UHGV virus genome: UHGV-1550212
Length of the DNA: 64,000 nucleotides
From: a virus
Direction: 5' to 3' (one strand)
Program-made: the position numbers and the translations under genes
Notes under the pieces: generated by a model
Told to the model about the DNA's origin: nothing
Database searches by the model: none
Seen by the model: the letters and a program-made list of their open reading frames with translations, nothing else
Part shown: positions 1 to 56,060 of the stretch, piece by piece
Layout: every line of letters begins with the position of its first letter
How positions within the stretch are numbered: position 1 is the stretch's first letter

Positions 1-98
1 TTTCTTGTTTGTACAGCCATAGTATGAAATTGTTTGAAGTTTGTCTGTTATTTGTATTGCAGACAAGCTCGAACAATTTCATCATTCAAGTATGTCTG

Positions 99-506
99 CT
101 ATTTGTAGAAAGCGCGATTAATTAACACCCAACGAGTTGTGTTGCCTGCAATAAGAATTGCATATGACATTGCGCCAGTTGCATTTGCTGATACATCTGA
201 GTAGCCTGCTGCATAGTACAATGGCCCATTATTAAATGCAAATGTTGTTGTCGCATTGCAAACTGTTGCATTGCCTACTCGATTAATAACACATGATTCG
301 CCATATGTTAAGTTTGACAATGCGCATGTTATTGCTGACGATGTCGTTATATTATGCACTGTGTTTGCGACTGCATTAAATGACGCAGATTCAAGCGTCG
401 CATTCGCCATCAACGCACTATCAATGAGGTCGCCAAATTGTGCCGAGGTGGGTTTATCTCCGGTTTCAAAATACGTTTTGAGTACCGAACGTGTTTGAAC
501 TGCCAT
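99..506 (-). CDS. small tail-fibre-like protein (135 aa)
   Basis: ATG ORF. The N-terminal LKTYFETGDKPTSAQFGDLIDS motif resembles conserved phage tail-fibre N-termini (recognised from memory, not searched). It lies at the end of the fibre block. Confidence 0.6.
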   Translation of the reverse strand: MAVQTRSVLKTYFETGDKPTSAQFGDLIDSALMANATLESASFNAVANTVHNITTSSAITCALSNLTYGESCVINRVGNATVCNATTTFAFNNGPLYYAAGYSDVSANATGAMSYAILIAGNTTRWVLINRAFYK

Positions 507-610
507 ATGTTTCGATGTTTTAAGTTATGCAATGTGACATGAAAGCAACACTGCAAACTTTCCATCGAATGCAATGTCGCCTACGTTATAACAAGAGATT
601 GAGCCAGATA

Positions 611-629
611 TGTGACCCCCCCCCCAGTT
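611..629. repeat. left arm of inverted repeat: TGTGA-C10-AGTT
   Basis: The C10 homopolymer at 616-625 and its flanks are the reverse complement of 920-936. Confidence 0.85.
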
Positions 630-726
630 CAATTTGAATGTCATAAAGCTTATGAGTTTTTCAAAAATTAAATTGTTTGTTTTATATATTTTGACTGCTC
701 ATATGTACATATCAAAACTCAAAAGA

Positions 727-876
727 TTTGCATCTTGCATCAAAACTCAAAAGTTTTGCATTTTGCATCAAAACAACATCTTAGTTGTTTTGCATCTTGC
801 ATCAAAACAACATCTTAGTTGTTTTGCATCTTGCATCAAAACAACATCTTAGTTGTTTTGCATCTTGCATCAAAAA
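727..876 (+). repeat. tandem array with five copies of the core (G)TTTTGCAT(C/T)TTGCATCAAAAC, including 2.6 copies of a 34-bp unit
   Basis: Cores lie at 727-746, 754-774, 787-808, 821-842 and 855-875. The 34-bp unit GTTTTGCATCTTGCATCAAAACAACATCTTAGTT occurs at 787-820 and 821-854. Confidence 0.9.
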
Positions 877-904
877 CTCAACTCACTTCAAAAACTCAAT
901 TCAT

Positions 905-1261
905 ATGCAAATCCCTCGTAACTGGGGGGGGGCACAACAAGCCCTCCAACAAAGAAAGCTGTTAAAGCAGTTCACCGTACATATTTATACTCGGTACACT
1001 ATACCAATTAGACTGACATTTCTTGATAGAGAATTGCCACAAGAAGTTGGTCCTATTAAAACAGTGACGCCAATGTTGTATGATAATAGTACAGCTATCA
1101 CAATTTACAAAGGCACGCAAGTGTTCTATGATTTGTACTATGATGAAGTTAAGTTTGCTACGCATATCATAGCAACACAAGGCAACACAAACTATGGTGA
1201 AATTGAATTTGACGCTGATGATATCAAAGCATCAGAATATGCAATATACATTGGTATTTGA
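905..1261 (+). CDS. hypothetical small protein (118 aa; alternative start 1073)
   Basis: Only plausible plus-strand ORF here. ATG 905 lies about 30 nt after the last promoter-like repeat copy, and the bidirectional terminator 1333-1364 follows. A G9 tract occupies codons 7-9. The 785-904 part of the tracked ORF is translated tandem repeat. Confidence 0.45.
   Translation: MQIPRNWGGAQQALQQRKLLKQFTVHIYTRYTIPIRLTFLDRELPQEVGPIKTVTPMLYDNSTAITIYKGTQVFYDLYYDEVKFATHIIATQGNTNYGEIEFDADDIKASEYAIYIGI
920..936. repeat. right arm of inverted repeat: AACT-G9-CACA
   Basis: The G9 homopolymer at 924-932 lies inside codons 7-9 of ORF 905-1261. Confidence 0.85.
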
Positions 1262-1332
1262 TAAGTAAATTTGTAAACATTTCAGACTATATTACACTTA
1301 GACTGTATCAATTAAGCGCGTCACAGTGCACA

Positions 1333-1364
1333 AAAAAGACTCAGCAATATTGCTGAGTCTTTTT
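1333..1364. terminator. bidirectional rho-independent terminator
   Basis: Perfect palindrome AAAAAGACTCAGCAAT|ATTGCTGAGTCTTTTT between convergent genes (stops at 1261 and 1381). Confidence 0.85.
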
Positions 1365-1380
1365 ATGCATTTGCAGTTCA

Positions 1381-2136
1381 TTACAGCATATTCCAGTTTG
1401 TCATGTCATACATGTTGAAGTTGAACGCTGATGTAATATGTTCAAGAGCAGTCAAGATGTCATTACCAACTACTGGGTCATTTGCAATAAGCAAAATACA
1501 GTCAGTGACAGACGTATCGACCATGTTGCCTGCTTGAAAATCATTGAGCATTAGCCATTCAGCAAAGCAGTTGTCATAGTACGCAGGCTTGCCTGCAAAC
1601 ACTTTATCATCTCCAAATGATTCAAATGGGTGCGACAATGTCGATGCAAGCAGTTGAATGTCTTCATCTGTGCAATGAGATTCAATTCCCTCAAGCACAA
1701 TTGCTACACGCCACTCATTTGTCTCTGAATCGCCTCTATGAATTTCGTGAATCCAGGGTAAGCATGCAAGTGTATCACCACATGTCAAATTGACATTATC
1801 AAGTGTCTCACCTTGACCTGCGTAGCAATATAAAGTGGAGCCAGTGCCATAACGTAGACAGTCATTTACACTGACATTATCAAGATACACTGAACAAATT
1901 GACAATGCACCTGCACCAAGCCTGTTTGCGGGAATTGTCAACTTATATGTTGGCACGCCATTTGGCTGCACTGTGATAGGTGAGCCTGCTAAGAATTCAC
2001 CAGTGTCAGCATCATAGCATTCGACTTCTTGCATAGTCGCATATGCAGCTTCAAGCAGTGAACCATCTGCTTTATTGATAGCGCCGCTGATAATAGTGTC
2101 ACGAAGAGCCCCCCGCGATTGACTGCTGGCGTTCAA
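1381..2136 (-). CDS. hypothetical virion-module protein (251 aa from TTG 2136; probable 5' extension to ATG 2158 across a G6 tract)
   Basis: Long ORF. The tracked start codon is TTG. An ATG at 2158 in another frame stops after 19 codons, just past the G6 tract (plus-strand C6 at 2109-2114). Confidence 0.7.
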   Translation of the reverse strand: MNASSQSRGALRDTIISGAINKADGSLLEAAYATMQEVECYDADTGEFLAGSPITVQPNGVPTYKLTIPANRLGAGALSICSVYLDNVSVNDCLRYGTGSTLYCYAGQGETLDNVNLTCGDTLACLPWIHEIHRGDSETNEWRVAIVLEGIESHCTDEDIQLLASTLSHPFESFGDDKVFAGKPAYYDNCFAEWLMLNDFQAGNMVDTSVTDCILLIANDPVVGNDILTALEHITSAFNFNMYDMTNWNML

Positions 2137-2227
2137 ACCAGAGTTGAGTAGTTTTCATAAGCGAAAAGACTTTTGTATGTGAAATTTATTGACATATTAT
2201 ATATCATGCTGCACTACGCACAAAAAG

Positions 2228-2256
2228 AAGAGCATCGGTTGATAACCGATGCTCTT
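2228..2256 (-). terminator. rho-independent terminator after the BACON genes
   Basis: 13-bp stem AAGAGCATCGGTT/AACCGATGCTCTT with a 3-nt loop, followed by a U-run in the minus sense. Confidence 0.8.
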
Positions 2257-2304
2257 TCAAGTTCTGCTGTAAACTGTTCAATAGTGTAATCTCGTTGTAC
2301 TCGA

Positions 2305-2919
2305 TTACGATACAGTCCACGGGCAGTTTGCAGTAACCGTAACCGTAACTGCAGGAGTACCGGCCTGAGGAATCTTGATTTCCTGCTTGTCGAGCACCAG
2401 CGTCGGGTCACCAGCAGCCTGAACGATTGCAATCTGAGCAGTCTGGGCACCGTTGGCAGTTACCAAAATCGATGTCGTACGCTCATCAATCGTCAAGTTG
2501 GCGGGAATGTCAAGCTCAATGCTGAACGCAAACTCAGCGCTAGCACCAGGGTCACCAGTGATTGCCACACCGTTGTTGGTTTCTACACCAGCAACCGCGT
2601 ACTTTTCAGGCAGTTCGATAACGAACTCGCCGCCCTCAACGACGCTGAACGTCAGCTTCAATGAGTTAGATACACCGGTTACGGTAAGAGTACCGCCAGC
2701 CTTAGGAGCTGACATCTCTGAACCGTTGTCAAATGACACGAATTCAGCCTTTGCAGTCTGCTGCACATTGTACGTCGAAGGCGTCGAAATACCGGCACCC
2801 TGAACGGTTACGACACCAGTACGTGCAATACGACCAGTGTGGGCGTCAGCAGAGTTGGAAATTGAACCATTACCCGAACCAGATGTCGGGCTAAGTTTCA
2901 ACCATGCGGGTTTAGCCAT
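2305..2919 (-). CDS. BACON-domain protein (204 aa)
   Basis: The N-terminus MAKPAWLKLSPTSGSGNGSISNSADAHTGRIARTGVVTVQ matches the BACON pattern (W-L-x-S-P, G-x-G-N, N-x-G-x-x-R-x-G). It is paralogous to the next two genes. Confidence 0.8.
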   Translation of the reverse strand: MAKPAWLKLSPTSGSGNGSISNSADAHTGRIARTGVVTVQGAGISTPSTYNVQQTAKAEFVSFDNGSEMSAPKAGGTLTVTGVSNSLKLTFSVVEGGEFVIELPEKYAVAGVETNNGVAITGDPGASAEFAFSIELDIPANLTIDERTTSILVTANGAQTAQIAIVQAAGDPTLVLDKQEIKIPQAGTPAVTVTVTANCPWTVS

Positions 2920-2975
2920 TGTTCAAAATTGTTATAAAGTGAGTGTATATGTGTACAAAATTCGATGATTGCTCA

Positions 2976-3575
2976 TCAAAGAATTTTCCAAGAAGCATTT
3001 GATGTCAAGTTCATTGTGATTGTTGTGCCGTCATCATCGACTGTCACAGACTCTGTGCTCAATACAAGAGTTGCTGCCGCAGCTGCTTGAGTAATACTAA
3101 CATTCAATGACTTGCCACCAGGTGTCGTCACTGTCAATACAAATGATTTCTGTTCAATTGTCAAATTTTGCGGTATTGTAACTTCAATTGACCAAGCAAA
3201 CTTTGCAATATATCCAGGGTCATTTGCAATTGCTGTGTCATTTGTTGCAGCGGCGCCATTTGCTGTGTACGCAGTCGGAATGCTAAGATTCGGATTTGTA
3301 GTTGCAAACTTAAGTTTTGCTGCGTTAGACTCACCAGAAACGACAATTTTTGTGGCAGCAGCAATCACATTATATGATGCTGTGCCTGACACAAATTCTG
3401 CAAGAGCAGCTTGGTTAATCGTCGTTTGCTTTGTAACTGTAGGTGTAGTCTTCGTTTGCACAGTCGCAATTGTGCTACGAATGCCTCTACCTGTATGAGC
3501 TCCTGCAGTAAATGCCAGGATATCATTGCCTTCACCAGACATTGGTGAACACTGCGCCCATATAGCTTTTGCCAT
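2976..3575 (-). CDS. BACON-domain protein (199 aa)
   Basis: The N-terminus MAKAIWAQCSPMSGEGNDILAFTAGAHTGRGIRSTIATVQ is BACON-like. It is a paralogue of 2305-2919. Confidence 0.8.
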   Translation of the reverse strand: MAKAIWAQCSPMSGEGNDILAFTAGAHTGRGIRSTIATVQTKTTPTVTKQTTINQAALAEFVSGTASYNVIAAATKIVVSGESNAAKLKFATTNPNLSIPTAYTANGAAATNDTAIANDPGYIAKFAWSIEVTIPQNLTIEQKSFVLTVTTPGGKSLNVSITQAAAAATLVLSTESVTVDDDGTTITMNLTSNASWKIL

Positions 3576-3646
3576 TGTTACTGTGCAATTTTTAATTGTT
3601 TGACATGATATTTATATGCATTGCTTAAGCAATGTTGAATTGACAT

Positions 3647-6600
3647 TTATCGAACAAGGAATGACGTACCAACAACCATATTCGGGATTGCCAAGCCATT
3701 GCCAGACTGGCTTACTGCAACTGTGCCACTTGTGTAACCTGACAATGCTGCAGTAATTGTTGCCGACCTGCTGTTATCTGAACCCCAGTTATTTGCAGCG
3801 GACAATGTCGAACCTCTGATTGTGAATGCGCCATTGTTCGATGAGTACGTTGGAGTAACCGCAGCATCTGATGTTGTAGACTGACCTGTCGTGTACTTTG
3901 TGACAGTTCGACCTGTCGTAGACAATGTTGCAGTGCCACCAGCAGCCCCAAAGCTTGTAACAGTTGAGCTGACAATCAGAGTCTTCGTAGTCGAAGTCAC
4001 ACTGTTGGCTTCCTGTGTAGCAGTGATTGCTTTTGAGCCAGTTTGACCATTCAACGCAACCGTCATATTGACTGTAGCGGTTCTTGCAGAACCAGCAGTT
4101 GTGCCACGATTTGCAGCAGTCAATGAACCGGTTGTACTACTGTTAAGCGTAAAGCCAGTAGTTGTAGCCATACTGTATGAAATTGTACCGCCAGATGTAA
4201 TAGTAGTTTTTGAACCACTTGTGTACGTTGCTGTCTGCGAGTATGCTGGCGTGCCTGTTGGAGTCTTTGTTGCACCTGCTGCAGCAAATGTTGCATATGA
4301 TGTTGCTGTAGTAACTGTGACTGCACTGTATGATACACTGTTAGTTGCTTGATAGACATCAAGTGCTTTTGTAGCAGTCTTAGACCCTTCACCAGTAGCA
4401 GTTGCAGTCAAAGTGCCAATCTTTGTACGAGCTTTAACTGTAGTGCCAAGCGATGATGCGCTGACTTTTGTGCTATACGCAATGCTAACTGAGCCTGCCC
4501 TTGTGCTGCCAGACGTATATGTAATTGTCTGTGATGCACTGATGCCAGACATTGATGCGACTTCACCACCGCCAGCAGGAATATCTGATACAGAACCACC
4601 AGAGATTGTTACTGCGCCATATGTCGTAATTGCATTTGCAGCTTGGTACACATCGACTGCTTTTGTTCCAGATTTGCCATTGACTGTTACAGTAACAGTA
4701 GATGTTGTAATCTTTGTGCGGGCTTTAGCAGTAGTGCCAAGTGAACTACCAGACACTGCGCCAGTAGACGTTGTTACACCAGTACCAGACCATGATTTGC
4801 TGCCGCCAGACGTAACTGTCTGTGTTGAGCCACTTGACCACGTAACTGATTGACTGAATGACACCGTAGGCGTAACTGAGCCGCCTTTTGCAGGAATATC
4901 ACCATAAGTCATCGAAACTGTTGGCATGCCATATGTAGCAGCATTAGCATTTTGAGATGCAGTAGCAGTCTTTGTTCCACTGATAGTCTTTGTGCCTGCT
5001 GCGTTGTATGATGCAGTTGGCGTCCATGTAGCCTTTACAGTCTTTGTGACTGTTGGCGATGTTGTTGCACCACTTGCAGTAGTGCCTTTTGATGATGCGG
5101 TTATAGCACCAGTAGATGCATTGAGTGCAGTGAACAATCCTGATGCGCCTGGCCAGCTATATGATGTTGTAGTTGACAATGAACCATACGTAGATGCTGG
5201 CGCAGTAGTTGAAGTACTGCCACTACTAAAGTGGTATGTTACTGTGTTTGCACCATTTGACGGTGTAGATGTTCCGCCACCTGCAGCAATTGCAGGATAT
5301 GACATCGAACCAACTGCAATATTGAGTGCAGTCACATAGTTGCCTGCCTGATAAATCGTTGCAGACTTGCTGGCAGATTTGCCATTCATTGTGACTTTAA
5401 CAGTCAGTGTACCTGCAGTAGTCTGGTTAGATATTGTAGTGCCCTTTGATTGCACAGTGACTGTCGATGTGTACTCAATTGTTCCGCCGCTTGTCAGTGT
5501 TTCTGTCGTCTTTTCACCAGTAGCATATGTCGTAGTTTTGACTTGCGAATAAGTTACTGTACCAGATTTTACAGAACCGCCGCTTGCTGCAATGATAGTT
5601 GCAGACGGTGTCAAGTTAACTGTGATATCGCTATATGTAACTGTGCCAGCAGATTGAGCTGCTTGATAAACATCTGCAGCTTTTGATGCAGACTTACCGT
5701 TGAGTGCTACTGTGACAGTTAATGTGCCAATCTTTGTTCGTGGCTTAACTGATGTGCCAAGTGATGATGCAGATATACCTGCTGCTGGGCTATATGAAAT
5801 TGTGCCACCAGTAGTAATGTTCTGAGTTGATGTTGATGTGTATGTAGCAGTCTGCGAATATGACACATTGCCACTCTTAATTGTACCACCAGTTGCAGGA
5901 ATATCTGCTACAGTGAAGCTTGAAATTGTAACTGCGCCATATGACACAGTGTTTGCAGCTTGCTTGACTGTGCAAGAACCAGTTTTTGTAACACCGCCCT
6001 CAGTGTATGAGCCAGAAATTGTAATGCTGCGTTCTGCGCCTACGACTGTTGTGCGATTTGCTGCAGTTACTGTAGTAGTCGACAATGTAAAGCCAGTTGC
6101 TGAACCGCTAAGTGTTGCAGATACTGCAGCAGATGACGTTGAGCCTGATGCATATGTGTATGACGCTGTTGAAGTGATTGTAGTTGAACCGCCACCAGCT
6201 GCCAATGTTGCAGCGCCAGGTGTCAATGTCAAGCCATTCAGCGTCTTTGAGTTTGCAGTTTGTGTTGCAGTAGCAGTTTTTGTAGCAGACTTGCCATTGA
6301 TTGCTACCGTAACTGTGACAGCATTTGAAGCATCAGTAGAGCCTACATATGATGTGCCCATTGACGTTACAGTCAATGCGCCACTTGTCGTATTCAATGT
6401 CCAGCGTGACTTAGCAGTCATTGCATAAGACAATGTAGCACCACTTGTCAATGTGCCACCTGAGCCAGCTACGCCATTCCAAGTCCAGACTTGTGAATAT
6501 GAAACAGTTGGGTTTGATGTACCACCAGCAGGAGCAATGTTTGAATATGAGAACGTTCCAATGACAGGCGTTTCATAGACTTTAGCGCCTGCAGCTTGGT

Positions 6601-7975
6601 TAAACGTGATGTCTTTTGATGCAGACTTACCATTTGCGGTGACTGTCAAGGTAACAACAAATCCATTACGTGCAGCAGTAGAATTGTTGTTTGTCACTGC
6701 GACATTCAAGCCAGATAAGCTATAGCCTGTTACAGCAGTTTTGACCGCAGCAGTCCATGTGCCACCTGATGTGTTGCTGTCAGTTGAACCGCTGCTGTAT
6801 GTCATTGACTGCGTAAATGTTGCAGATGCATTGGCTGCAACAGTTTGACCTGCTACTGCAAGAGCAACTGGTGTTGTCTTTGTAATGACTGGCGTGCCAT
6901 ATGTAATGCTGTTAGCAGCTTGTGTAATCGATACAGTAGCAGTTGCATTGCCATATGACGCTGTGCCACTAAATGACCGAGCATCACCGACAGTCTTGCC
7001 ACGATTTGCAGATGTTACAGAATTTGCAGATATCGTAAATCCTGTTGCAGTGCCAGTAATTGTAGGCTTGACATTTGTTTCAGTAGATGTAACAACACCA
7101 TTCCATGTTACAGTGTAAGTGCCTGTGATTGTTGATGTTCCACCTGCTGCAGTATGACTTGTTGAATATGCGTTCAGAGCAAGTTTGTATACGACTGAGC
7201 CTGCTGCTTGTGAACATTTAACAGTCTTCGATAAGTCATGACCACTTACAGTCAGTGTTGGTGTAACTGCTGCAGTTGATGCATTGTTCGGTGTATTGAC
7301 AGTGATTGTTACAGGGCCTGTGCCAGATGCTTTTGAGACTGACCAACCTGCAGGTACGCCTGAAATTGTCCATGCAAAGTCAGGGTTACAAGAAATTGCG
7401 AATGTTTTCGATTCACCCTTTGCAACAAATGACAGAGTTTCTGGTGATACTGCCAATGTTGCACTTGCACCAGCTTGATTTACAGTAAATGCTGCAGACT
7501 CGCCACCAGGCGTTGACAATGTAAAAGTGAACGCCTTTGCAGCGATTGCAGTATGTGCATCAATCTGCACTCGTACAATCACTTCAAATTCAGCATTGAC
7601 ACCAGGGTCATTGTCAAAGTTTGTGTTGAGCTCGTAGTTTTTGCCTGCAACAGTCACGCCAAGCACTGTGCCGCTTGCAGTACCACCAGTACTGCCAAGC
7701 ACAAGTTTTTGTGCATTTGTGACGCATTTCAATGTTGCAATAGTGCCACCATTTGACGCAATGTTTGTAGATGCAACTGTAGCTCGTATAGTTTCACCAG
7801 GAGACTCTTGCAATACTGCACAGTTTTCAGTTACTACTGGTGAACCTGTAGTTGTTTGCGCAGTAAAGCTGCCAGACCTGTTATTTCGACCAGTATGCAC
7901 AGATGCTTTGACAGACAACTGTGAGTTGCCTGTGCCAACATCAGGTGTAACTGTCAACCAAGTAGGCTTTGCCAT
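3647..7975 (-). CDS. giant BACON/Ig-like tandem-repeat surface protein (1442 aa)
   Basis: N-terminal BACON domain (MAKPTWLTVTPDVGTGNSQLSVKASVHTGRNNRSGSFTAQ), followed by more than 10 repeats of about 95 aa with the recurring pattern ...GGT..YSQ..TYTSGS...SLGT..K.RTKIGTLTVT...NGKSA.K...VYQA.N. Confidence 0.85.
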   Translation of the reverse strand: MAKPTWLTVTPDVGTGNSQLSVKASVHTGRNNRSGSFTAQTTTGSPVVTENCAVLQESPGETIRATVASTNIASNGGTIATLKCVTNAQKLVLGSTGGTASGTVLGVTVAGKNYELNTNFDNDPGVNAEFEVIVRVQIDAHTAIAAKAFTFTLSTPGGESAAFTVNQAGASATLAVSPETLSFVAKGESKTFAISCNPDFAWTISGVPAGWSVSKASGTGPVTITVNTPNNASTAAVTPTLTVSGHDLSKTVKCSQAAGSVVYKLALNAYSTSHTAAGGTSTITGTYTVTWNGVVTSTETNVKPTITGTATGFTISANSVTSANRGKTVGDARSFSGTASYGNATATVSITQAANSITYGTPVITKTTPVALAVAGQTVAANASATFTQSMTYSSGSTDSNTSGGTWTAAVKTAVTGYSLSGLNVAVTNNNSTAARNGFVVTLTVTANGKSASKDITFNQAAGAKVYETPVIGTFSYSNIAPAGGTSNPTVSYSQVWTWNGVAGSGGTLTSGATLSYAMTAKSRWTLNTTSGALTVTSMGTSYVGSTDASNAVTVTVAINGKSATKTATATQTANSKTLNGLTLTPGAATLAAGGGSTTITSTASYTYASGSTSSAAVSATLSGSATGFTLSTTTVTAANRTTVVGAERSITISGSYTEGGVTKTGSCTVKQAANTVSYGAVTISSFTVADIPATGGTIKSGNVSYSQTATYTSTSTQNITTGGTISYSPAAGISASSLGTSVKPRTKIGTLTVTVALNGKSASKAADVYQAAQSAGTVTYSDITVNLTPSATIIAASGGSVKSGTVTYSQVKTTTYATGEKTTETLTSGGTIEYTSTVTVQSKGTTISNQTTAGTLTVKVTMNGKSASKSATIYQAGNYVTALNIAVGSMSYPAIAAGGGTSTPSNGANTVTYHFSSGSTSTTAPASTYGSLSTTTSYSWPGASGLFTALNASTGAITASSKGTTASGATTSPTVTKTVKATWTPTASYNAAGTKTISGTKTATASQNANAATYGMPTVSMTYGDIPAKGGSVTPTVSFSQSVTWSSGSTQTVTSGGSKSWSGTGVTTSTGAVSGSSLGTTAKARTKITTSTVTVTVNGKSGTKAVDVYQAANAITTYGAVTISGGSVSDIPAGGGEVASMSGISASQTITYTSGSTRAGSVSIAYSTKVSASSLGTTVKARTKIGTLTATATGEGSKTATKALDVYQATNSVSYSAVTVTTATSYATFAAAGATKTPTGTPAYSQTATYTSGSKTTITSGGTISYSMATTTGFTLNSSTTGSLTAANRGTTAGSARTATVNMTVALNGQTGSKAITATQEANSVTSTTKTLIVSSTVTSFGAAGGTATLSTTGRTVTKYTTGQSTTSDAAVTPTYSSNNGAFTIRGSTLSAANNWGSDNSRSATITAALSGYTSGTVAVSQSGNGLAIPNMVVGTSFLVR

Positions 7976-8030
7976 TTTATGTCGTTTTGTTATTTTCTGT
8001 GATATTTACACACACAATGTAACTTGCATT

Positions 8031-15160: not shown

Positions 15161-15235
15161 TTCGAATGTGCACACATGAGAATAGGTCTCTTCGAATGTG
15201 CACATATGAGAATAAGTCTCTTCGAATATGTACAC
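15161..15235 (-). repeat. 2.4 copies of a 30-bp tandem repeat (TTCGAATGTGCACA(C/T)ATGAGAATA(G/A)GTCTC)
   Basis: Copies lie at 15161-15190 and 15191-15220, with a partial copy from 15221. Each holds the near-palindrome ATGTGCACAT. The array sits between terminator 15241-15266 and the J-like gene. Confidence 0.85.
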
Positions 15236-15240
15236 AAAAA

Positions 15241-17962: not shown

Positions 17963-17982
17963 GTTTGTATATGTACAAATAC
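17963..17982 (-). promoter_or_regulatory. late-type promoter-like motif (minus sense TATTTGTACATATACAAAC)
   Basis: It lies about 15 nt upstream of ATG 17948, directly after the sigma-gene terminator. Confidence 0.4.
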
Positions 17983-18065: not shown

Positions 18066-18962
18066 TTACAATGTTCCGCAAAGCAATTCACGTAAATCCA
18101 TGCCAGCTTGTGTACTATACTGAGCAATAAGATTACGTTCTGAATCAGACATGCTCCAATAAATCTTATGCTGAGCTCTACGAATAATAGTATGAATGCC
18201 AGATGTGCTACAATTGAACTTCTTTGCAAGTTCTGCATGAGTTAACAAATCCGCATCGCCAAGGCCATACACATGTGTGAGTACAAGCTTTTCATTTTGA
18301 GTGAGTTGTTCAAATGCTCTTTGCAGAATCTTTGTGTTGCGTTTGTGAGCATCCTCGATTTCAAGAACTTCTTGGCCTGTTTTGAAGTCTGACCTCAAAT
18401 CATTCTGAACTGGTGACCATGCATCACCATCTTTATCAAGTGTAGTGTCATCCTTACTGGTGAATTGTTTGCCTTCAAGAGCTCTTTCATATGCTCCACG
18501 AATACCAGTAGATAATTGTTGACTTGTCAGATTGAGTTCGTCAAGCACATATTTCTTAATCCAAGGATATGCATATGTGCTAAACTTTGCTTCACGAACT
18601 CCTGCAGGCAATACGCCTTCTACGTAATTCTTGGCTGCTATTGACAATCCAAGATTGCCTGCTTGAATGACGTCATCCAATGGAACCGAGCGTTTGCCAG
18701 ATGCGAACCATAAGCTTCGTGCAACTGATATGACCAATCTTAAACAAGATTTGATAAGAGCTTCACGATTTTCTTGAGTCTTCTTGAATCGAGTAACATC
18801 ACAATATCGCTTTGCAGTAGCCAGCGATTTGACTTCTTCAGGAGTAAGCTCATTCTCCATCCTCATTTGCTTGAGCTCCTCCTTTGTGTATAGACGTTCT
18901 CTTGTGATTCTACCTACGTCCTTTACGTAGCCTTGATTGATTTGTGAATTTGAACCTGCCAT
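18066..18962 (-). CDS. sigma-70-family RNA polymerase sigma factor (298 aa)
   Basis: Region 2 is LDDVIQAGNLGLSIAAKNY...FSTYAYPWIKKYV (compare DLIQEGNIGLMKAV...FSTYATWWIRQAI). The region-4 HTH is LTHAELAKKFNCSTSGIHTIIRRAQHKI. Its own terminator lies at 18013-18047. Confidence 0.85.
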   Translation of the reverse strand: MAGSNSQINQGYVKDVGRITRERLYTKEELKQMRMENELTPEEVKSLATAKRYCDVTRFKKTQENREALIKSCLRLVISVARSLWFASGKRSVPLDDVIQAGNLGLSIAAKNYVEGVLPAGVREAKFSTYAYPWIKKYVLDELNLTSQQLSTGIRGAYERALEGKQFTSKDDTTLDKDGDAWSPVQNDLRSDFKTGQEVLEIEDAHKRNTKILQRAFEQLTQNEKLVLTHVYGLGDADLLTHAELAKKFNCSTSGIHTIIRRAQHKIYWSMSDSERNLIAQYSTQAGMDLRELLCGTL

Positions 18963-22956: not shown

Positions 22957-25900
22957 TTATCGTACGATGAATGGCTTGTTAGAGTCTTCAATAATCATTG
23001 AGCCGATGCCATGCAGCTCTTGAGTAACCTCGACAGATACATCTTGTGCAGTGTTGTATGAGCACTTGAATGCTGCAACTCGACTAAATGCGTCAATGTC
23101 TGAATAACTGAGTTCATCAACTTGTATTGAGATTTCACCAATTGCTGGCGCAGTCTTTGATGGTGTAATTGTGATGTCATGCAGCCAGCCCGGATTGCCA
23201 ACAATGACTGCAGTCAATGATTCACCATCAATTGGATTGACAACTTCATAATTGAAGCTCAAAGTCTTTGATGAGTCATCAGTTGTTGCTGACGCAGGCG
23301 TAATGTTGATTGTTGTTACGCCTTTCGCAGCCTGAACAATTTGTGCAGTAACATCTTGAGCATTGATGTGAGAGAACTTAACTGAGCAGCTACGTTGTTC
23401 TGTCGTTAAGTTGCGGTCACATTCAATAGTCAAGTAGCCTTTGCCTGTGTTATCATCATATTCGAAATTTGTGTCAGTGAATACGCCAGCTCCATTAAGA
23501 ACTTCATATGACAACTGCTGACCTGCAATTGGATTGCCAACAGTGACCTCAAAGACTGCTTGAGTATCTGTTGACTTCAATTGAGCAATAATCGGCTCAA
23601 CAGTTATTGTCGACACGCCTTGAGCTGCTTGTGTAATGTTGACTGTTACGTTGTCAGCAGTCATATATGACAGTCTCAAGTATAAGTTACGAGTAGCTGT
23701 TGCAGTGTTGATGTCAAGCGCAAATTGTATTGTGCCAGCTGACATATTTACTACAGGTTCGCCAACAAAGCCAGAGCCCTCTGCAGCAACTGTCAGTGTT
23801 TCGTCTTCAATAGGATTGGTGATGCTAAAGTTAACTGTAAACGAACCACCATTAGCTGCTGCGTTGATTGTCAGCGGTTCAGCATTGATGACTGTAGCTT
23901 CTTTAGCAGCCTGAGCAAGCGATACTGCTACATTGTCTGCAGTTGGATATTGTAGTACAATGTTTGCTGTACGAGTGCTTGTTTGCAATGTCTTGTCATA
24001 ATCAAATGTAATCTTGCCATCAGCAACTTGAACATTGTGAATCCAGCTTTTTGTTGCATATGCAGTGACTGCAGCACCAGCATAGCCATTACGAATTTGA
24101 TATGTAATTTCAGATGAACCGCCAGCAGCATTAAGTGACATAGAACTTGTGACAATGATTTCAGGCCTTGTTGATGCACTTGTGCTGTATTGAACTACAG
24201 ATGCAATTACACGAGGCTCAAATATGACAGCATTTGCAGAGCCGCCAAATGTCGGTGTTGCAATCACATAGATTGGCCAAACTCCACTTGATGCGACATT
24301 GCGTAAGATTGCTCGATAGTGCAGTTCATTGCATGCATCTTGCAATTCACTCCATGTTTTTGCAGTGTCAATTGTTGTCAAGCATGCAGGCAACACCGCA
24401 CATGTTGATGGCTTATCGGCGTCAATAGGTGTTGCATTGCCACTTGCTATTGGTTTGTAGCTCAAGTCGACTTTGACTGATGCATAACCATTGCCATACA
24501 CAATGAATGGCACAGTGATATCAAGCAAAATATCGACAGTTGCAGGCATGTTCAGATATGCTGGCAGCGGTACAAGCGTTTGCATTGCAGTAGCACCTGG
24601 CACATTGTCATCGAATGATTCAACATACACAGGTGGCGTCAAATCATCTTTGTGAGCATATTCTGCATGAGTGTGGTCTGAATGTGACACTGTGCTTGCA
24701 TAACCAGACCCAGCAAAGTCTTTATTGAATGCAGACTTCTTTGCTTCTTCAGTCAATCTGCCAGAGCCATCATATGCCAGCACAGTATTTGATGCGCCGA
24801 CACCTGCTGCAAGATGATTTGAGCCATCAATGAAGACATGTTTATATTGACGTTCAAACAAATGAGCATCAAAATTGTCAAATATCGAATTGAACAGCTT
24901 TTTGACTGCGGATGCTGTAGGCAGATGCTTGTTTGCATTTGCGCCATCAATGATGATACTTGCCCAATTGTCTGAGCTCTTGAAGATGCCAAGAAGCATA
25001 TCGATGACTTTGCCAGTAGCGTCTGTGCCAAGAACACTTGCACCAGGCAGTTTCATCAATTGTAAGTCGACTGTTGCAGCAAGTTTAAGCAACTGCTTTG
25101 TCAATGTCAGAATGTCTGTGACAACTCCAGCATCTGACAATGCTGCAATGCGATATGACTGATTGATGAGTTGCGCAAACTTATATGCACGAATGAATGA
25201 CTCTCGCTTTGCTTCTGCATCCAAGCCTTTTGCCAAGAACAACTCATCATATTTCAGATTTGCATATGACAATATGTCAAGCTCATTGACTGCAGATGTA
25301 AAATGATTGCGAAGTCTAATGCCCTCATATGATTGCCACAATGCAGCCAAATCAGCAAATGACTTGACATGTGAATCATCTGATGCAAAGCCAAACACAA
25401 GACCGCTGTTAAAGTCGTTTTGCAACAGCATATGTGGAAAAGCATCAATGCCTGGCAACTGATTCTTTTTGTCTGCATCAAGACGATTCAGTGTTCGTTG
25501 TGTGAGGTCGTAATAGTAATATGGATTGCCCAATATCTGCACAACTGGCTTTGCTGCTTTGTTGTTTGCATTGCCAAGACCATCAATTTGTGTATCACTC
25601 GGTGCAAGCAGAATAACTGAGCTGTCAACGTTATTGTATCGAGGCACACTTTCAAGCCCTATTGACAATGCGCCTGTATGCTTGTTTGAGTAGCTGTTGT
25701 CGATTTCTGCACCAGGCTGGCCATCTGCTGCAATGTTGAACATTGCTGCGTATGACTTGATTGTACCGCCGTACTTTGTTTTGATGAGCTCTTCAATGAT
25801 TTGCGTAATGATGACATTCAAGTTATCATTGTCACTTGTCAGCAATTGCAAGCCCGTAAATTGCCACCATTGCGCATCATCTGATGACGCGTCATACCAG

Positions 25901-26295
25901 TACACTTTGCCATCTGGTGCAATGACCCAGTCTGCGTATGACAAAGCATCTGTATGCAAAATGTTGCAAAACGCGGGTTTGTTTGCATCTGAACAGAACT
26001 CATTGAATGCTGCAGCATCGACAACTTTTGCAGTACCTGCGTCATTTTGCGTAGCTGACCAATCACTGCCAAATGTTGCATTGATATCAGCAAGTGATGC
26101 ATACATAATGCGGTTGCCTCGATAGCCATCGAAGCCAGGCAAACCGCGGTCACCAGTTTCACCAATACGACCCTTAAATAGGGGGGAATTCACAATTCTA
26201 CTGAAATTGTAATTCAAAATTTCACACAACTCTGCATAAGATGTGACTTGAAGTTTTTTCAGTACAATTGGCTGTGCTTTATGTTCTGCAGACAT
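22957..26295 (-). CDS. tail fibre protein with collagen-like motif and C-terminal BACON-like repeats (1112 aa)
   Basis: Contains the G-x-Y run GRIGETGDRGLPGFDGYRGN near the N-terminus and an HSDHTHAEYAH motif. Four C-terminal repeats of about 90 aa end ...V(T/S)V.(I/V)TQ(A/E)A.G. Confidence 0.85.
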   Translation of the reverse strand: MSAEHKAQPIVLKKLQVTSYAELCEILNYNFSRIVNSPLFKGRIGETGDRGLPGFDGYRGNRIMYASLADINATFGSDWSATQNDAGTAKVVDAAAFNEFCSDANKPAFCNILHTDALSYADWVIAPDGKVYWYDASSDDAQWWQFTGLQLLTSDNDNLNVIITQIIEELIKTKYGGTIKSYAAMFNIAADGQPGAEIDNSYSNKHTGALSIGLESVPRYNNVDSSVILLAPSDTQIDGLGNANNKAAKPVVQILGNPYYYYDLTQRTLNRLDADKKNQLPGIDAFPHMLLQNDFNSGLVFGFASDDSHVKSFADLAALWQSYEGIRLRNHFTSAVNELDILSYANLKYDELFLAKGLDAEAKRESFIRAYKFAQLINQSYRIAALSDAGVVTDILTLTKQLLKLAATVDLQLMKLPGASVLGTDATGKVIDMLLGIFKSSDNWASIIIDGANANKHLPTASAVKKLFNSIFDNFDAHLFERQYKHVFIDGSNHLAAGVGASNTVLAYDGSGRLTEEAKKSAFNKDFAGSGYASTVSHSDHTHAEYAHKDDLTPPVYVESFDDNVPGATAMQTLVPLPAYLNMPATVDILLDITVPFIVYGNGYASVKVDLSYKPIASGNATPIDADKPSTCAVLPACLTTIDTAKTWSELQDACNELHYRAILRNVASSGVWPIYVIATPTFGGSANAVIFEPRVIASVVQYSTSASTRPEIIVTSSMSLNAAGGSSEITYQIRNGYAGAAVTAYATKSWIHNVQVADGKITFDYDKTLQTSTRTANIVLQYPTADNVAVSLAQAAKEATVINAEPLTINAAANGGSFTVNFSITNPIEDETLTVAAEGSGFVGEPVVNMSAGTIQFALDINTATATRNLYLRLSYMTADNVTVNITQAAQGVSTITVEPIIAQLKSTDTQAVFEVTVGNPIAGQQLSYEVLNGAGVFTDTNFEYDDNTGKGYLTIECDRNLTTEQRSCSVKFSHINAQDVTAQIVQAAKGVTTINITPASATTDDSSKTLSFNYEVVNPIDGESLTAVIVGNPGWLHDITITPSKTAPAIGEISIQVDELSYSDIDAFSRVAAFKCSYNTAQDVSVEVTQELHGIGSMIIEDSNKPFIVR

Positions 26296-35289: not shown

Positions 35290-36585
35290 CTATTGTTTGC
35301 GTTGTAATGTCAGTAGTCCACAGTCATATACAGGTAAAAATCCTGCAGCATTGTAGTCTTCTGCATGTGATATGTCATTGTCTATAAAATGCTCACCAGT
35401 TCGCATATTATGCCAATGACATTGTATAACATTGCTTACTAATTTATAGTCATCTACATATTTTGTAGGGTCTTCTTTTGACAAGTCTATTGTAATAACG
35501 TCGGCAGTTTTCAATTGTTCTGTGTCATCGATGATTGACTTTAGCAATGCGACAATTGTATCAGCGTCATCCCAATCCCAAATTGTGACGCATCGATAGC
35601 CTTGCGACATTGCTTTGCAACATTTGTCTGCATGACTATTTGCATGTCTATGCCAATTTGCTGCAGAGCGGCCTGTCATATACTCAAAGCTATACGCACT
35701 ATTATGCGTAAACGTTGGATTGATTTCAATTGCTATGTTCTCATAGCGTAAGTCATATGTAAATGATTCTATTTGCGGTTGCTCAAACTCAAATTGAACG
35801 TTAAGCGATTCTAACAAGTATCGTTGCCACCATTGATTTTGCTTAGATATGATGTGACCTTGCGCAAGTTTACAATGTGTAGTCATGCAATAATATGGCA
35901 CACCATAACGCATCATATTTGTACGTACAACTGCTTGTGTGCGTCGTTTTAAGTCACCGCCCCACTTGTTGCCATACCGTTCAAGCTTTGTTTGCGTTGC
36001 CAGTTGTATATTCACACATCCATTTGCTTTGCCATATCGTTCAAGTTTGACTTGCGTAATTTTGTCCATAGGCCCAAATGCATTACCAAATTGTGCAATC
36101 TTTGTAGCTTTCATTTTGTCAATATTGCCAACACCTTTGCTGCCAAATCGAACAAGCTTAGTGTCGCCAACTTTGCATTTAACATCATGCAATTGTGATA
36201 TGAATTCTACACCGTATTTGAGCAAGTTATTGATGCGACCATTATAACGCTGTTTAATGATGCCATGCGATGTTTTGCGTGGTGCATAACGAACAAATGG
36301 TGTATTAGCAAGTTCAGCATCTCGCAATTCTTCAAGTTCTTTTATTCGAGCTGCATGTTCAGATGCGTTATCATATTGCAACGCGCCAGCATGACGTTCA
36401 TATGGCAATCTTCCATGCTTACGTATGAAAGCAATTTTGTTTGCATATTGCACACGTATCTTACTATGTGTAGATACTCTTGCGCTTAATTTTGCATATG
36501 GCGTTTCTGCAATCAATTTATCACGTTCAGCTTCAAGTTCTTTTATTCGAGCTTCAAGAGCATCACCAGTTAGTCGTTCAGCCAT
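35290..36585 (-). CDS. freestanding homing-endonuclease-like protein, paralogue 2 (431 aa)
   Basis: The N-terminal LTGDALEARIKELEAERDKLIAETP module is duplicated internally (IKELEELRDAELANTPFVRYAPRKTSHG). It also has (K/E)RYG repeats and a YDLRYENIAIEINPTFTHNS core. Start ATG 36585. Confidence 0.75.
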   Translation of the reverse strand: MAERLTGDALEARIKELEAERDKLIAETPYAKLSARVSTHSKIRVQYANKIAFIRKHGRLPYERHAGALQYDNASEHAARIKELEELRDAELANTPFVRYAPRKTSHGIIKQRYNGRINNLLKYGVEFISQLHDVKCKVGDTKLVRFGSKGVGNIDKMKATKIAQFGNAFGPMDKITQVKLERYGKANGCVNIQLATQTKLERYGNKWGGDLKRRTQAVVRTNMMRYGVPYYCMTTHCKLAQGHIISKQNQWWQRYLLESLNVQFEFEQPQIESFTYDLRYENIAIEINPTFTHNSAYSFEYMTGRSAANWHRHANSHADKCCKAMSQGYRCVTIWDWDDADTIVALLKSIIDDTEQLKTADVITIDLSKEDPTKYVDDYKLVSNVIQCHWHNMRTGEHFIDNDISHAEDYNAAGFLPVYDCGLLTLQRKQ

Positions 36586-36615
36586 TGTGCATGAATGTTC
36601 AATATGTAAATTCAC

Positions 36616-36629
36616 TATATGTACATATA
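36616..36629. promoter_or_regulatory. perfect palindrome TATATGTACATATA, a candidate bidirectional late promoter between terL and HE paralogue 2
   Basis: It lies 24 nt upstream of terL ATG 36653 and 31 nt upstream of HE ATG 36585. The same core precedes many structural genes. Confidence 0.45.
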
Positions 36630-36652
36630 ACACGAATATTCAAGTTAGATGC

Positions 36653-41254: not shown

Positions 41255-41363
41255 ATTTGGGACGGATTCTTGTCTTTACTTTACTATATGAAAATTGTAC
41301 CACAAGTTGTCAAGTTTTGCTAACTTTGACGACTTGTGGTACGTCTGTTTTGTACATATGCAG

Positions 41364-41732
41364 TTATTTGATTGCACGTTCAAACATTCTGCAGCACCAG
41401 TCTTTATATGCAGGATTGCCCTTGACATCTGCTCGGAATGCGCAGTTGATAAGAGTCTTCTCCTCATTAACAAAGCATGCATAACGGCAGTTTGCGCAAC
41501 AACGAGCATCTTCTTGTTTTGTGCAAAATGCTGCACATGTCATGTCATCTTCTGTGTTGCGAATTGTTTTTGTTGGCGTGTACTCATAAGTGCACTGACA
41601 AATGCCATTATGCTCACGATGAAAGAAGCAATTTTTGCAAATATGTGCAACTTCTTCAACTGGTGCTGATGCTGCATATGTTTGTTCTTGCTCTACTGCA
41701 GACTGTGCAGCAACTTTAGTCTTTTTTGCCAT
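41364..41732 (-). CDS. Cys-rich hypothetical protein (122 aa)
   Basis: Starts at ATG 41732 (MAKKTKV...), and the upstream tracked part is translated tandem repeat. Contains two C-x-N-C modules (CKNCFFH, CCANCRYAC). Confidence 0.6.
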   Translation of the reverse strand: MAKKTKVAAQSAVEQEQTYAASAPVEEVAHICKNCFFHREHNGICQCTYEYTPTKTIRNTEDDMTCAAFCTKQEDARCCANCRYACFVNEEKTLINCAFRADVKGNPAYKDWCCRMFERAIK

Positions 41733-41759: not shown

Positions 41760-41833
41760 GTTTTGATGCAAAATGCAAAACAATATAAAATTGTTTTGAT
41801 GCAAAATGCAAAACAATATAAAATTGTTTTGAT
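41760..41833 (-). repeat. tandem array with 2.25 copies of a 33-bp unit carrying the same core (minus sense GTTTTGCATTTTGCATCAAAAC)
   Basis: The copies at 41760-41792 and 41793-41825 are identical. The array lies about 27 nt upstream of ATG 41732. Confidence 0.9.
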
Positions 41834-41835
41834 AT

Positions 41836-43740
41836 CTACAAAGATTTGAACAATTCCTCGTATGTTACAATTTTCTTGCCTTTTGCAAGTGCTGCTTTCA
41901 TTTTGTTCGACAGCTTGTTGACATCATTTGTGACAACATAGTCACATGCATCAATGTTTGCACCGACATCTTCAAGCTTACCATTTGCTGCATCAATAAA
42001 TGCGCCTTTTGTAGCCCAAGTAGGCTTAGGCGAGCCCGTCATGACAACTTTGATTGCTGCATCATTTGTAGACGTCTCTTTATGCATTTCATTAAACATT
42101 ACGAAGCATTGCGGAAAATGCTTGAGCAATCTTTGTATGACATTCAGCTTTATGAGCTTGTCAATTGGCTCCATGCTCAAGCCCTTAAAGTCATACTGAC
42201 AATTGCTGAAGTATGCAGATAACTGATACGCTGCTTTGCTGCCAAGACCAGGAATCTGCATGCATTCAATGAAATGCGATAAGTAAATGCTACTGAAGCG
42301 TTCACGTAAGCCTGCAATGACTGTACGGTCATTTTTGCTGTTTGTGTCAAACTGCAGCAGCTCAAACAGTCGTTCATTGTCAACTTCTTGCACAATGCAG
42401 AACAAGTCTTCAATTGTGGGCGCATCAGAGAATGTCAACATGACATCAAGATTGTCTTGTGCAATAAGCAAAGCCTCGCAAATTTTCGTAGCATAAACCC
42501 AACCAAGCCCATCGATGTTAAGCTTGCAAACGCCTTTGATAAACCTCGTGCATCTTGCAAATTCCTCAGGCATCATCAAGTGAATGCCATCGACATATGC
42601 ATGTACAGGAATGTCAGCTTTGCTGATATCACCAGGTTCAATACATTCTTGAATGTCTGGAATAATGTCGCCGCCCTTTTCAATACGAACAAGAGCGCCA
42701 GGCCAAATGTCATTTGCATGCAAAAAGCCATAGTGAAATGCTGAAGCTGCTTTTACTGTAGTGCCATCAAGCTCAACAGGCTCAAGTTCAACTCTCGGAA
42801 AAAGCTCACCATTGATTCGCTGACGCCAATCAATTCTAGTCACTCGAGTTACAGCAGACATTGCATCAAGCTTCAATGCAACCATGTTTGCGTATTCTGC
42901 TGCATTTGCAAACTGCTGCTCAATCCACAAGTCATCTGCAAAAGGCTTGACTACAATGCCATCAATGCGATATTTGAATTCTGGGCGTTCATTAGCAATT
43001 TTTGTGCAAGTTTCTGCAAACTCATTGTAATCAGTGACTTCAAAGACTTCTGCAATGAATTCTGCAGGCCAGCCAACTTTAGCAAGAGCATCTGCAGGAT
43101 TGGTTTGCTCATATGTTTTGCCATCAAGTGTGTCAGTCAACATGTATGCCATAGGGTCAATGTCTTCCATGCCACACATATCTAATGACTTCACAAATGC
43201 CGCAGCAGTATTACGCTCATTTTTGTATTTAACTGAGCCATCAGAGTTGAAGTGATACTTTTGTGCAAAAATGTCTTTTGCAATGACAGCTTCAAAGCGA
43301 ATCTGATATGGCTGTTCTGCTGCAGCAAGCTGCATCGGCACTTTGCCTGCTACAACAAATTTGCGCGTGACATCATAGCCCGTATAGCCATCACCACGAG
43401 TAACAACTTTTAGCAATCTGCCATCAGTGTCGTAATGTGCTTCACAGCCCATGCCGTCATACTTGTGCATAAGTAACATTTTATAACCAACAATGTTGCA
43501 CACAATATCATGCAATGTGGTTGTAAACTGTGACTTTGTGTGAATTGCAGCAAGACTTAATGCAGGTGTAAGATGCTTAACTTCTTGCTTGTTTGACTCT
43601 TCAAAACGAATCTTATGTTTAATGTCATCATTTGCAAGAAGCTGCTGTTCAAGAGCATCAAATGCATCATCAGACATTATCGGATTGCCCGCATAATATG
43701 CAGCTATAGCGTCATGGTACGTATTGAGCATGTCAGTCAT
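41836..43740 (-). CDS. ligA: NAD-dependent DNA ligase (634 aa)
   Basis: The N-terminal YYAGNPIMSDDAFDALEQQL is Ia-domain-like. The adenylation-site context is HKYDGMG (KxDG). The C-terminus is BRCT-like (VVMTGS...DYVVTND...KGKKIVTYEELF). Confidence 0.8.
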   Translation of the reverse strand: MTDMLNTYHDAIAAYYAGNPIMSDDAFDALEQQLLANDDIKHKIRFEESNKQEVKHLTPALSLAAIHTKSQFTTTLHDIVCNIVGYKMLLMHKYDGMGCEAHYDTDGRLLKVVTRGDGYTGYDVTRKFVVAGKVPMQLAAAEQPYQIRFEAVIAKDIFAQKYHFNSDGSVKYKNERNTAAAFVKSLDMCGMEDIDPMAYMLTDTLDGKTYEQTNPADALAKVGWPAEFIAEVFEVTDYNEFAETCTKIANERPEFKYRIDGIVVKPFADDLWIEQQFANAAEYANMVALKLDAMSAVTRVTRIDWRQRINGELFPRVELEPVELDGTTVKAASAFHYGFLHANDIWPGALVRIEKGGDIIPDIQECIEPGDISKADIPVHAYVDGIHLMMPEEFARCTRFIKGVCKLNIDGLGWVYATKICEALLIAQDNLDVMLTFSDAPTIEDLFCIVQEVDNERLFELLQFDTNSKNDRTVIAGLRERFSSIYLSHFIECMQIPGLGSKAAYQLSAYFSNCQYDFKGLSMEPIDKLIKLNVIQRLLKHFPQCFVMFNEMHKETSTNDAAIKVVMTGSPKPTWATKGAFIDAANGKLEDVGANIDACDYVVTNDVNKLSNKMKAALAKGKKIVTYEELFKSL

Positions 43741-56040: not shown

Positions 56041-56060
56041 GTGTTATATGTACACAAAAC
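56041..56060 (-). promoter_or_regulatory. late-type promoter-like motif (GTTTTGTGTACATATAACAC)
   Basis: It lies between terminator 56060-56085 and ATG 56022. Confidence 0.4.

Follow-up and report, generated by a model that had tools for sequence, protein, structure and literature searches.

In the viral genome UHGV-1550212, poly-G tracts lie at the starts of back-to-back genes, and we consider that they act as slippage-prone switches by which at least one of these genes is turned on and off. Judged from sequence comparison, this reading has a probability of about 0.72. The window, meaning the whole stretch of DNA analysed, is 64,000 nucleotides long and the locus lies near its left end. The best example is the plus-strand open reading frame (ORF) 905-1261. 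A tract written as C10 is a poly-G tract in a leader of the opposite strand, upstream of the tail-fibre-like gene 99-506, and a further one belongs to a paralogous cassette gene read from ATG 2158 (Table 1). An earlier sequence-only reading had put forward an invertible promoter flanked by the C10 and G9 runs, with slippage of each tract as an alternative. The alternative is retained here and the leading proposal is abandoned.

The right tract begins 19 nt after ATG 905 on the plus strand and is read as MQIPRNW-G9-AQQALQ. The sequence-only reading placed the right arm correctly at 920-936, but the G9 run lies inside ORF 905-1261 (codons 7-10) and not upstream of it. Translation of virtual tract lengths leaves ORF 905 open only with 6, 9 or 12 nt. 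Lengths of 9 or 12 give the full ORF of 118/119 aa, while 10 or 11 give a truncated product with a stop after 20-35 codons. Across 16 assemblies the tract measures 9 nt in one, 10 nt in nine and 11 nt in six; a length of 12 is implied by one ON protein allele. The protein collection contains 22 distinct alleles of ORF 905. Eight distinct alleles from other assemblies are in frame and share ~91-100% identity: five imply n=9 (MQIPRNWGGAQQ or MQIPRSWGGAQQ), a single one n=12 (MQIPRNWGGGAQQ), and in the other two the tract contains a substitution (NGGGG, NWWG). The remaining alleles, about 14, are truncated or use an alternative start. The window product is identical to a protein of a 174,628-bp JGI contig, and the gene has been called in this lineage at 61, 62, 75, 112, 118, 119, 133, 134, 144, 154 and 163 aa. 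Because in-frame and out-of-frame alleles both exist and tract length sets the frame, we regard the G9 run as a genuine frame switch that is ON in the window.

The two in-frame alleles with a substitution (P0018 and P0028) depart from a simple change of length. In MQIPRNGGGGAQQ the Trp codon is converted and the run lengthened, and in MQIPRNWWGAQQ the run is interrupted. They are possible locked or altered-rate variants of the tract.

Slippage at each tract on its own, the secondary option of the earlier reading, is strongly supported by length polymorphism in otherwise identical genomes together with the ON and OFF alleles. Over 3,506 bp, the window and the assemblies L005 and L006 differ only at tract 924 (9/10/10 nt), at tract 2109 (6/7/6 nt) and by a 68-bp indel of the repeat array, equal to two units. 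Seven further assemblies show 100% identity over 3,300 bp except at four tract lengths. In relatives the left tract has 10 nt (11 assemblies), 9 nt (2), 8 nt (1) or 7 nt (1). The homopolymers of about 7 nt or more that slipped-strand switches carry in their 5' coding region are represented by G9 in ORF 905, G10 after ATG 644 and G6-G8 after ATG 2158. The reading frame toggles with tract length both in ORF 905 (9 and 12 in frame; 10 and 11 out of frame) and in the cassette gene (8 in frame; 6 and 7 out of frame). Slippage would therefore be the mutational mechanism suggested by these length changes. Many of the tract-variant assemblies come from PRJEB14847, the Costea 2017 study, Phase III of which used fecal specimens of eight individuals and three protocols (PMC6739870). 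Since few fecal specimens were processed with several protocols, tract-length differences unaccompanied by any single-nucleotide polymorphism probably reflect heterogeneity within one phage population. Earlier phases of that study reportedly re-extracted a few specimens many times.

The two divergent leaders are homologous. Both share the ATG, 16 nt and then AAC TGG GGG GGG (Asn-Trp-Gly-n), MQIPRNWGGAQQAL aligns with MKTPQFWFERQQGL, and ATG 644 and ATG 905 are equidistant from their tracts. The C10/G9 inverted repeat is thus explained by two homologous leaders that point away from each other. The arms TGTGA-C10-AGTT (611-629, with the C10 run at 616-625) and AACT-G9-CACA (920-936, with the G9 run at 924-932) have the sequences originally reported. 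Their description as inverted copies is accurate for a 13-nt core (617-629 versus 920-932 in a repeat search, 100% complementarity, 290 nt apart), but outside the core the left arm has an extra A and one more C.

The same design recurs elsewhere in this phage lineage. A near-identical promoter and leader of ~100 nt (TATATAAT, 45 nt, ATG AAA ACT ACT CAA CTC TGG TTT GAA CGC CAG CAG TCA ATC GC-Gn-CTCTTCGTG) precedes gene 1381-2136 (ATG 2158, G6) and at least three further genes in a 175-kb relative, whose bodies are unrelated. Copies are found at 2100-2230 of the window (minus strand), at 150-285 (plus) and 2470-2600 (minus) of L002, at 8800-8930 of L003 and at 4135-4265 of L004. Their sequence identity ends right after the tract, and one copy has an interrupted tract, GGGTGGG. 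The cassette tract lies 44 nt after ATG 2158 and has 6, 7 or 8 nt in relatives; the products seen are 251 aa (n=6), 217 aa (n=7) and an in-frame protein of 259 aa (n=8, P0016). At the related loci, every G/C run of at least 6 nt is a sense poly-G tract, and its distance from the ATG of an M.....W leader is 19 or 44-47 nt. By this similarity we assign the Gn cassette design to at least 4-5 further genes of the lineage, the one starting at ATG 2158 included.

Such tracts are not expected by chance. C10 (616-625) and G9 (924-932) are the only G/C runs of at least 9 nt in the window, and a first-order Markov simulation yields such runs in 0 of 200 trials. The sequence-only reading was therefore right to call runs of 9-10 nt unexpected (2 observed versus 0 expected). 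For runs of at least 6 nt, 4 are observed versus 0.51 expected. It had also considered that the runs might be assembly artefacts, which they are not, since at least 16 independent assemblies, produced in several studies and with several assemblers, contain them. The remaining run of at least 6 nt in the window (26181-26186) is a C6 in the sense of the 1112-aa gene 22957-26295, at about codon 37.

These observations suggest the following model. Two transcription units would diverge from the promoter-like palindrome at 701-712, in a host-recognition/tail-fibre region, and each would open with a leader of the same design carrying a poly-G tract. The tracts would be hot spots of replication slippage, with lengths that would change at high frequency in nature. 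On the plus strand, tract length would set the reading frame of the accessory gene 905-1261. On the minus strand, the tract is located in a 39-codon upstream ORF (uORF) and may tune the tail-fibre-like gene or be a relic. Duplicated cassettes would provide the phage with a multi-gene set of independent stochastic ON/OFF switches, and the 22-nt array would be a cis-regulatory element shared with one other gene (at 41.7 kb).

The stop of the minus-strand leader ORF (525-527) is 18 nt before the ATG of gene 99-506. This leader ORF 525-644 is kept in L002, whose C7 corresponds to an in-frame difference. The left tract may be part of a relic leader, or of an upstream ORF that tunes translation of gene 99-506. 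Speculatively, a termination point of the uORF placed 18 nt or ~80 nt before the tail-fibre start would modulate the downstream gene. The sequence TTGAACTG (624-631, in the leader just before G10) is fully complementary to CAGTTCAA (495-502, codons 2-4 of gene 99-506). Both are paired in the predicted fold of the minus-strand RNA, and a C-to-T change in L002 preserves the pair as G-U; the match could be due to chance (~0.1 expected). A paralogue of gene 99-506 with the same N-terminus starts at window position 20, also on the minus strand. The gene 99-506 product has no Pfam, PHROG or PDB match. The description of the two flanking genes as fibre-module genes remains plausible from their context, although neither has a family match.

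The palindrome at 701-712 is as the sequence-only reading described it. The box TGTACATAT, of which it contains two, is present in 9 copies in the window versus 0.98 expected, and these are mostly sense-oriented and 25-50 nt upstream of ATG starts. Sites of this type are located at 701-712, 2949-2957, 15226-15234, 17969-17977, 36617-36628, 41351-41359, 56046-56054 and 60722-60730. TGTACATAT precedes ATG 56022 and probable starts near 17943, 36585 and 36653, and the variant TGTACACAT (2949-2957) precedes ATG 2919. The exact palindrome ATATGTACATAT occurs again at 36617-36628, next to the terminase gene and to gene 35290-36633. This second copy lies inside ORF 36425-38644 as listed; a terminase start near ATG 36653 would be required for it to be intergenic between divergent genes. 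On the minus strand, TATATAA occurs in 4 copies in 64 kb, all of them 20-45 nt upstream of starts, which include ATG 644, ATG 2158 and that of the sigma-factor gene (box at 18998). This recurrence suggests that TGTACATAT and TATATAA are promoter elements: TGTACATAT is a candidate phage-specific promoter box and 701-712 a candidate bidirectional promoter for the two divergent units. A scan of positions 1-2400 for sigma-70 promoters and terminators gave nothing beyond shuffle expectation, and an Rfam scan of positions 1-3000 gave only sub-threshold chance matches. The perfect palindrome AAAAAGACTCAGCAATATTGCTGAGTCTTTTT downstream of ORF 905 looks like a bidirectional terminator that would close both the plus-strand unit and the upstream minus-strand gene.

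Five tandem motif copies directed towards ORF 905-1261 were correctly reported in the earlier description. The copies all lie on the plus strand and repeat every 28 and then every 34 nt. When 3 mismatches at most are tolerated, GTTTTGCATYTTGCATCAAAAC has 7 matches in the window versus 0.01 expected. They are confined to two places, and likewise to only two in a 175-kb relative. The first array has 1, 2, 3 or 5 copies in relatives, and it persists in L007, which has lost the plus-strand gene, and in L002, which keeps a mere remnant of that gene. The second has 3 copies in L001 and 2 in L008, and in such relatives lies 33 nt from the ATG. The position of the first array, after the promoter-like box, favours an operator or 5'-leader element over a promoter proper. 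This array is most likely a copy-number-variable cis-regulatory element. The Bacteroidota promoter TTTG-N19-21-TAnnTTTG was rejected as an explanation of the array (2 matches versus 1.6 expected); both of its window matches, 60023-60053 (minus) and 60685-60716 (plus), are near a divergent region at ~60.7 kb. Downstream of the second array, 41364-41732 (minus) encodes a Cys-rich protein of 122 aa with several CxxC-like motifs and no family match. As a candidate zinc-binding regulator, this protein might have the shared motif as its target. A terminator and a TGTACATAT box are immediately followed by another tandem repeat (15161-15236, 30-nt unit, 2.5 copies, TGTGCACATTCGAAGAGAC...), which precedes the probable start of the baseplate-wedge-like gene and has the variant box TGTGCACAT in each unit.

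Table 1. Coordinates of the features at the poly-G locus and of related elements in the window
Feature	Position	Strand	Details
Tail-fibre-like gene, 135 aa, MAVQTRSVLKTYFETGDKPTSAQFGDLIDS...	99..506	-	ATG 504-506, downstream of leader ORF
Leader ORF MTFKLNWGGGHISGSISCYNVGDIAFDGKFAVLLSCHIA, 39 codons	525..644	-	MTFKLNW-G10-HISGS; stop 525-527
Poly-G tract, G10 in sense (C10 as written)	616..625	-	19 nt after ATG 644
TATATAA box	682..688	-	44 nt upstream of ATG 644
Palindrome ATATGTACATAT	701..712	.	Two back-to-back TGTACATAT boxes
Array of five 22-nt motifs GTTTTGCATYTTGCATCAAAAC	725..876	+	Downstream of rightward TGTACATAT box, 28 nt upstream of ATG 905
Accessory gene, 118 aa	905..1261	+	Leader MQIPRNW-Gn-AQQALQ; ON in window
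Poly-G tract G9	924..932	+	Codons 7-10 of ORF 905-1261; putative frame switch
Perfect 32-nt palindrome AAAAAGACTCAGCAATATTGCTGAGTCTTTTT	1333..1364	.	Conserved in L002, L007, L023
Paralogous cassette gene	1381..2158	-	Leader ATG 2158 (MKTTQLWFERQQSIA), G6 at 2109-2114, 241-aa body out of ATG frame
Sigma-70-family sigma factor	18066..18962	-	phrog_351; Pfam Sigma70_r2, r4; TATATAA at 18998
Second motif locus	41760..41840	-	2 copies at 41760-41814; one-mismatch box TGTAGATAT at 41832-41840; 27 nt upstream of ATG 41732

Several points weigh against the poly-G tracts as switches. No long body lies behind the left tract in any frame: it opens no long ORF, toggles no frame and leaves its "switch" without a demonstrated output. 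The evidence consists of assembly consensus, and switching within a clone, at whatever rate, would be an extrapolation from it. Illumina consensus carries some error for G runs of 9-11 nt, which does not apply to the 6-, 7- and 8-nt tracts. Likewise, transcription start sites are deduced from motif recurrence and not mapped, and the host-recognition role is suggested by the position of the genes next to BACON-domain, tail-fibre-like and baseplate genes. The tract-bearing proteins have no recognisable domain, and their single-sequence AlphaFold models are unusable (predicted local distance difference test scores of 47 for ORF 905 and 44 for P0016). Lastly, OFF states dominate the assemblies (15 of 16 for the right tract and all but one for the cassette). 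Genes of importance would not be expected to show such a bias, and ribosomal or transcriptional slippage may contribute to their expression.

The out-of-frame states might accordingly be the functional norm, with programmed ribosomal frameshifting, or slippage of RNA polymerase on the G runs, decoding them into a low level of product. The cassette G7 reads GCG GGG GGG in the ATG frame and thus contains a G_GGG_GGG heptamer (X_XXY_YYZ type). G7 is also the modal state (P0005, 52 contigs), three paralogues and the interrupted copy GGGTGGG have the body in the -1 frame, and two of the three substitutions just after the tract are synonymous in the body frame. However, the shift required is not constant (-1 for G7, but +1 for G6, for the MKTPQFW copy and for the G10 of ORF 905), and in-frame alleles exist for both gene types. 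We consider this explanation unlikely as a replacement for DNA-level switching, with which it can coexist.

It is rather improbable that the tracts lack a regulatory role and represent neutral, unstable relics or sequencing noise. A left tract without a long ORF, the decay of one paralogue tract to GGGTGGG and the prevalence of OFF states would agree with neutrality. Yet diverged paralogues and a relative with diverged flanks have kept the tracts at an unchanged position in the leader, two runs of at least 9 nt are observed where none is expected, and the ON alleles of ORF 905 are ~91-100% identical across assemblies. As for noise, Illumina sequencing reads tracts of 6, 7 and 8 nt accurately.

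The array and the adjacent AT-rich stretch could instead form an iteron-type replication origin that the tracts merely flank. Five direct 22-nt repeats do lie beside a stretch of 78% A+T (630-724) at the point of divergent transcription, and a second small array is found beside the DNA ligase gene. Instead of fixed and phased repeats accompanied by an initiator gene, however, we observe copy numbers of 1-5 in viable-looking genomes and irregular spacing (28, 33, 34 nt), and no initiator gene is identified nearby. Moreover, both arrays are oriented with a gene: a TGTA(C/G)ATAT box immediately precedes each of them, and the start codon of that gene follows after 27-33 nt. An origin is therefore very unlikely.

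The leading proposal of the sequence-only reading, a promoter cassette (630-919) flipped by a recombinase between the C10 and G9 arms so as to swap what faces each gene, is highly improbable. The perfect 13-nt inverted repeat (617-629 / 920-932) with its matching 4-nt flanks does bracket a segment that contains promoter-like elements and the array. As the arms are equidistant from an ATG, inversion would also regenerate two intact leaders. However, the opposite orientation, for which the earlier reading had advised a comparison of related genomes, is not seen: relative to the flanking genes, all 16 assemblies with both arms have the window orientation. The model predicts the junctions GATATGTGA-Cn-AGTTACGAGGGATTTGCAT as well as GATATGTGA-Cn-AGTTACGAGGG and ATGACATTCAAATTGAACT-Gn-CACAACAAGCC. 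All 22 alleles of ORF 905 have either the MQIPR start or a read-through of the array in native orientation, and none has the chimeric MTFKLNW...AQQ N-terminus expected from inversion. The right arm is dispensable, since L002 and L007 keep the array without it, and arm lengths drift independently (left/right 10/9, 10/10, 8/10, 9/11, 10/11). The recombinase that such a system calls for was sought with Pfam in 40 ORFs, all from the 64-kb window and not from the other ~110 kb of the genome, and no resolvase/invertase or tyrosine-recombinase domain was found. The inverton model is thus not supported, although a rare inversion might escape notice in assemblies. A long-range RNA helix between C10 and G9, also put forward earlier, forms in silico but needs one transcript across both arms, whose lengths vary independently. 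It is disfavoured because the promoter-like boxes lie between the arms and point outwards.

To our knowledge, and in the literature searched, Campylobacter phages are the only phages in which host-recognition genes have been shown to switch through poly-G tracts. There, hypermutable poly-G tracts lead to phase-variable receptor-binding proteins (Sorensen 2021, Cell Rep 35:109214, as cited in PMC10579305 and PMC10877375). As far as these citing papers describe it, this is the closest known system: Fletchervirus and the present phage are both lytic large phages of myovirus type, poly-G tracts lie within coding sequences of their host-recognition regions, and tract length varies within populations and sets ON/OFF expression. 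The present phage differs in its unrelated lineage and likely host phylum (Bacteroidota-type, 41% G+C) and shows no detected protein sequence homology. Its tracts are also part of a conserved and duplicated promoter-leader cassette (codons 7-17 of several paralogues), one of them lies in a short upstream ORF, and a receptor-binding function is suggested here by context. The literature searched holds no report of poly-G phase variation in gut or Bacteroidota phages.

A second parallel is provided by bacterial contingency families. The opa genes of Neisseria have CTCTT repeats in the leader coding region. Poly-G contingency genes are known from Campylobacter jejuni (PMC10877375). As in both families, paralogues here have a near-identical 5' leader and divergent bodies, and each has its own slippage-prone tract near the start, which would allow independent frameshift switching. 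Unlike opa-type families, the present one is viral, its repeat is a homopolymer and its products are uncharacterised. Systems that are invertible by means of flanking inverted repeats include the capsular polysaccharide (CPS) invertons of Bacteroides, fimS, Mu G/Gin and P1 C/Cin. The invertible tail-fibre segments of Mu and P1 are cited in PMC10579305. The present locus resembles them in that short inverted repeats bracket a regulatory segment between oppositely oriented genes of a host-recognition module. It differs by its single observed orientation, by the lack of a recombinase among the 40 ORFs, by homopolymer arms whose lengths drift uncoupled and by the dispensability of one arm in relatives.

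Gut Bacteroidota escape phages by phase-varying their surfaces and, as far as we know, the counter-strategies described for their phages are largely limited to diversity-generating retroelements and recombination. Tentatively, and at slightly less than even odds, we suggest that this widespread gut phage has, in its host-recognition region, an opa-like family of at least 5-6 genes, each behind a duplicated promoter-leader cassette with its own poly-G switch, which would give a combinatorial mixture of virion or host-interaction states per infection, with C10 tuning the tail-fibre gene through the uORF. If true, no multi-gene slipped-strand contingency system would have been described before in a gut Bacteroidota phage, and the family would mirror, on the phage side, the phase-variable surfaces of the hosts. 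The locus suggests that the strategy of Campylobacter phages is used, as a reusable leader cassette, in an abundant uncultured lineage of human-gut phages. Two cautions follow for annotation. Mirrored homopolymers between divergent genes can mimic invertons. In phage tail modules, frameshifted "pseudogenes" may be contingency genes in the OFF state that gene callers mis-start.

The window forms the start of a ~175-kb contig, and its genes are almost all on the minus strand. Family matches include a baseplate wedge protein, a T4-type large terminase, an NAD-dependent DNA ligase, a clamp-loader-like ATPase, topoisomerase II subunit A, dihydrofolate reductase (DHFR), a sigma-70-family sigma factor and BACON-domain proteins. 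The most similar terminases are found in Chryseobacterium phages MA9V-1/2 (40-47% identity) and Tenacibaculum phage PTm1, and the nearest isolates have Bacteroidota hosts. Related contigs of 175-176 kb come from human-gut metagenomes. This is a large uncultured gut phage of myovirus-like type with a probable Bacteroidota host. A crAss-like identity is rejected: the phage has a baseplate-wedge match, a terminase of T4 type and a genome of ~176 kb, and its nearest relatives also speak against it. A megablast search of window positions 1-8000 against INPHARED gave no match, and a scan of metagenome contigs for more distant relatives returned two short ones. Sequence searches of Pfam, PHROGs and PDB gave nothing usable for the 135-aa, 118-aa and 259-aa proteins or for four virtual-ON cassette proteins; matches to designer Kelch proteins are spurious and a CorA-like match of one paralogue is sub-threshold.

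At least 7 independent assemblies end within a few kb of the locus, some of them inside the array (window position 1; L002, L005, L006, L012, L013, L018, L019). These ends do not correspond to a physical genome end, the locus being internal in L010 and L011. They are likely caused by paralogous leaders and MAVQTR N-termini that break assembly graphs.

The segment between the array and the bidirectional terminator (877-1332) appears as a cargo hot spot when homologous stretches of L002, L007, L010 and L023 are compared. The plus-strand gene is absent from L007 and replaced by a 32-codon remnant in L002, and the window type has one 118-aa gene. In relatives of the L010 type there are two genes, a different body of 222 aa behind the MQIPRNW leader and another poly-G cassette gene.

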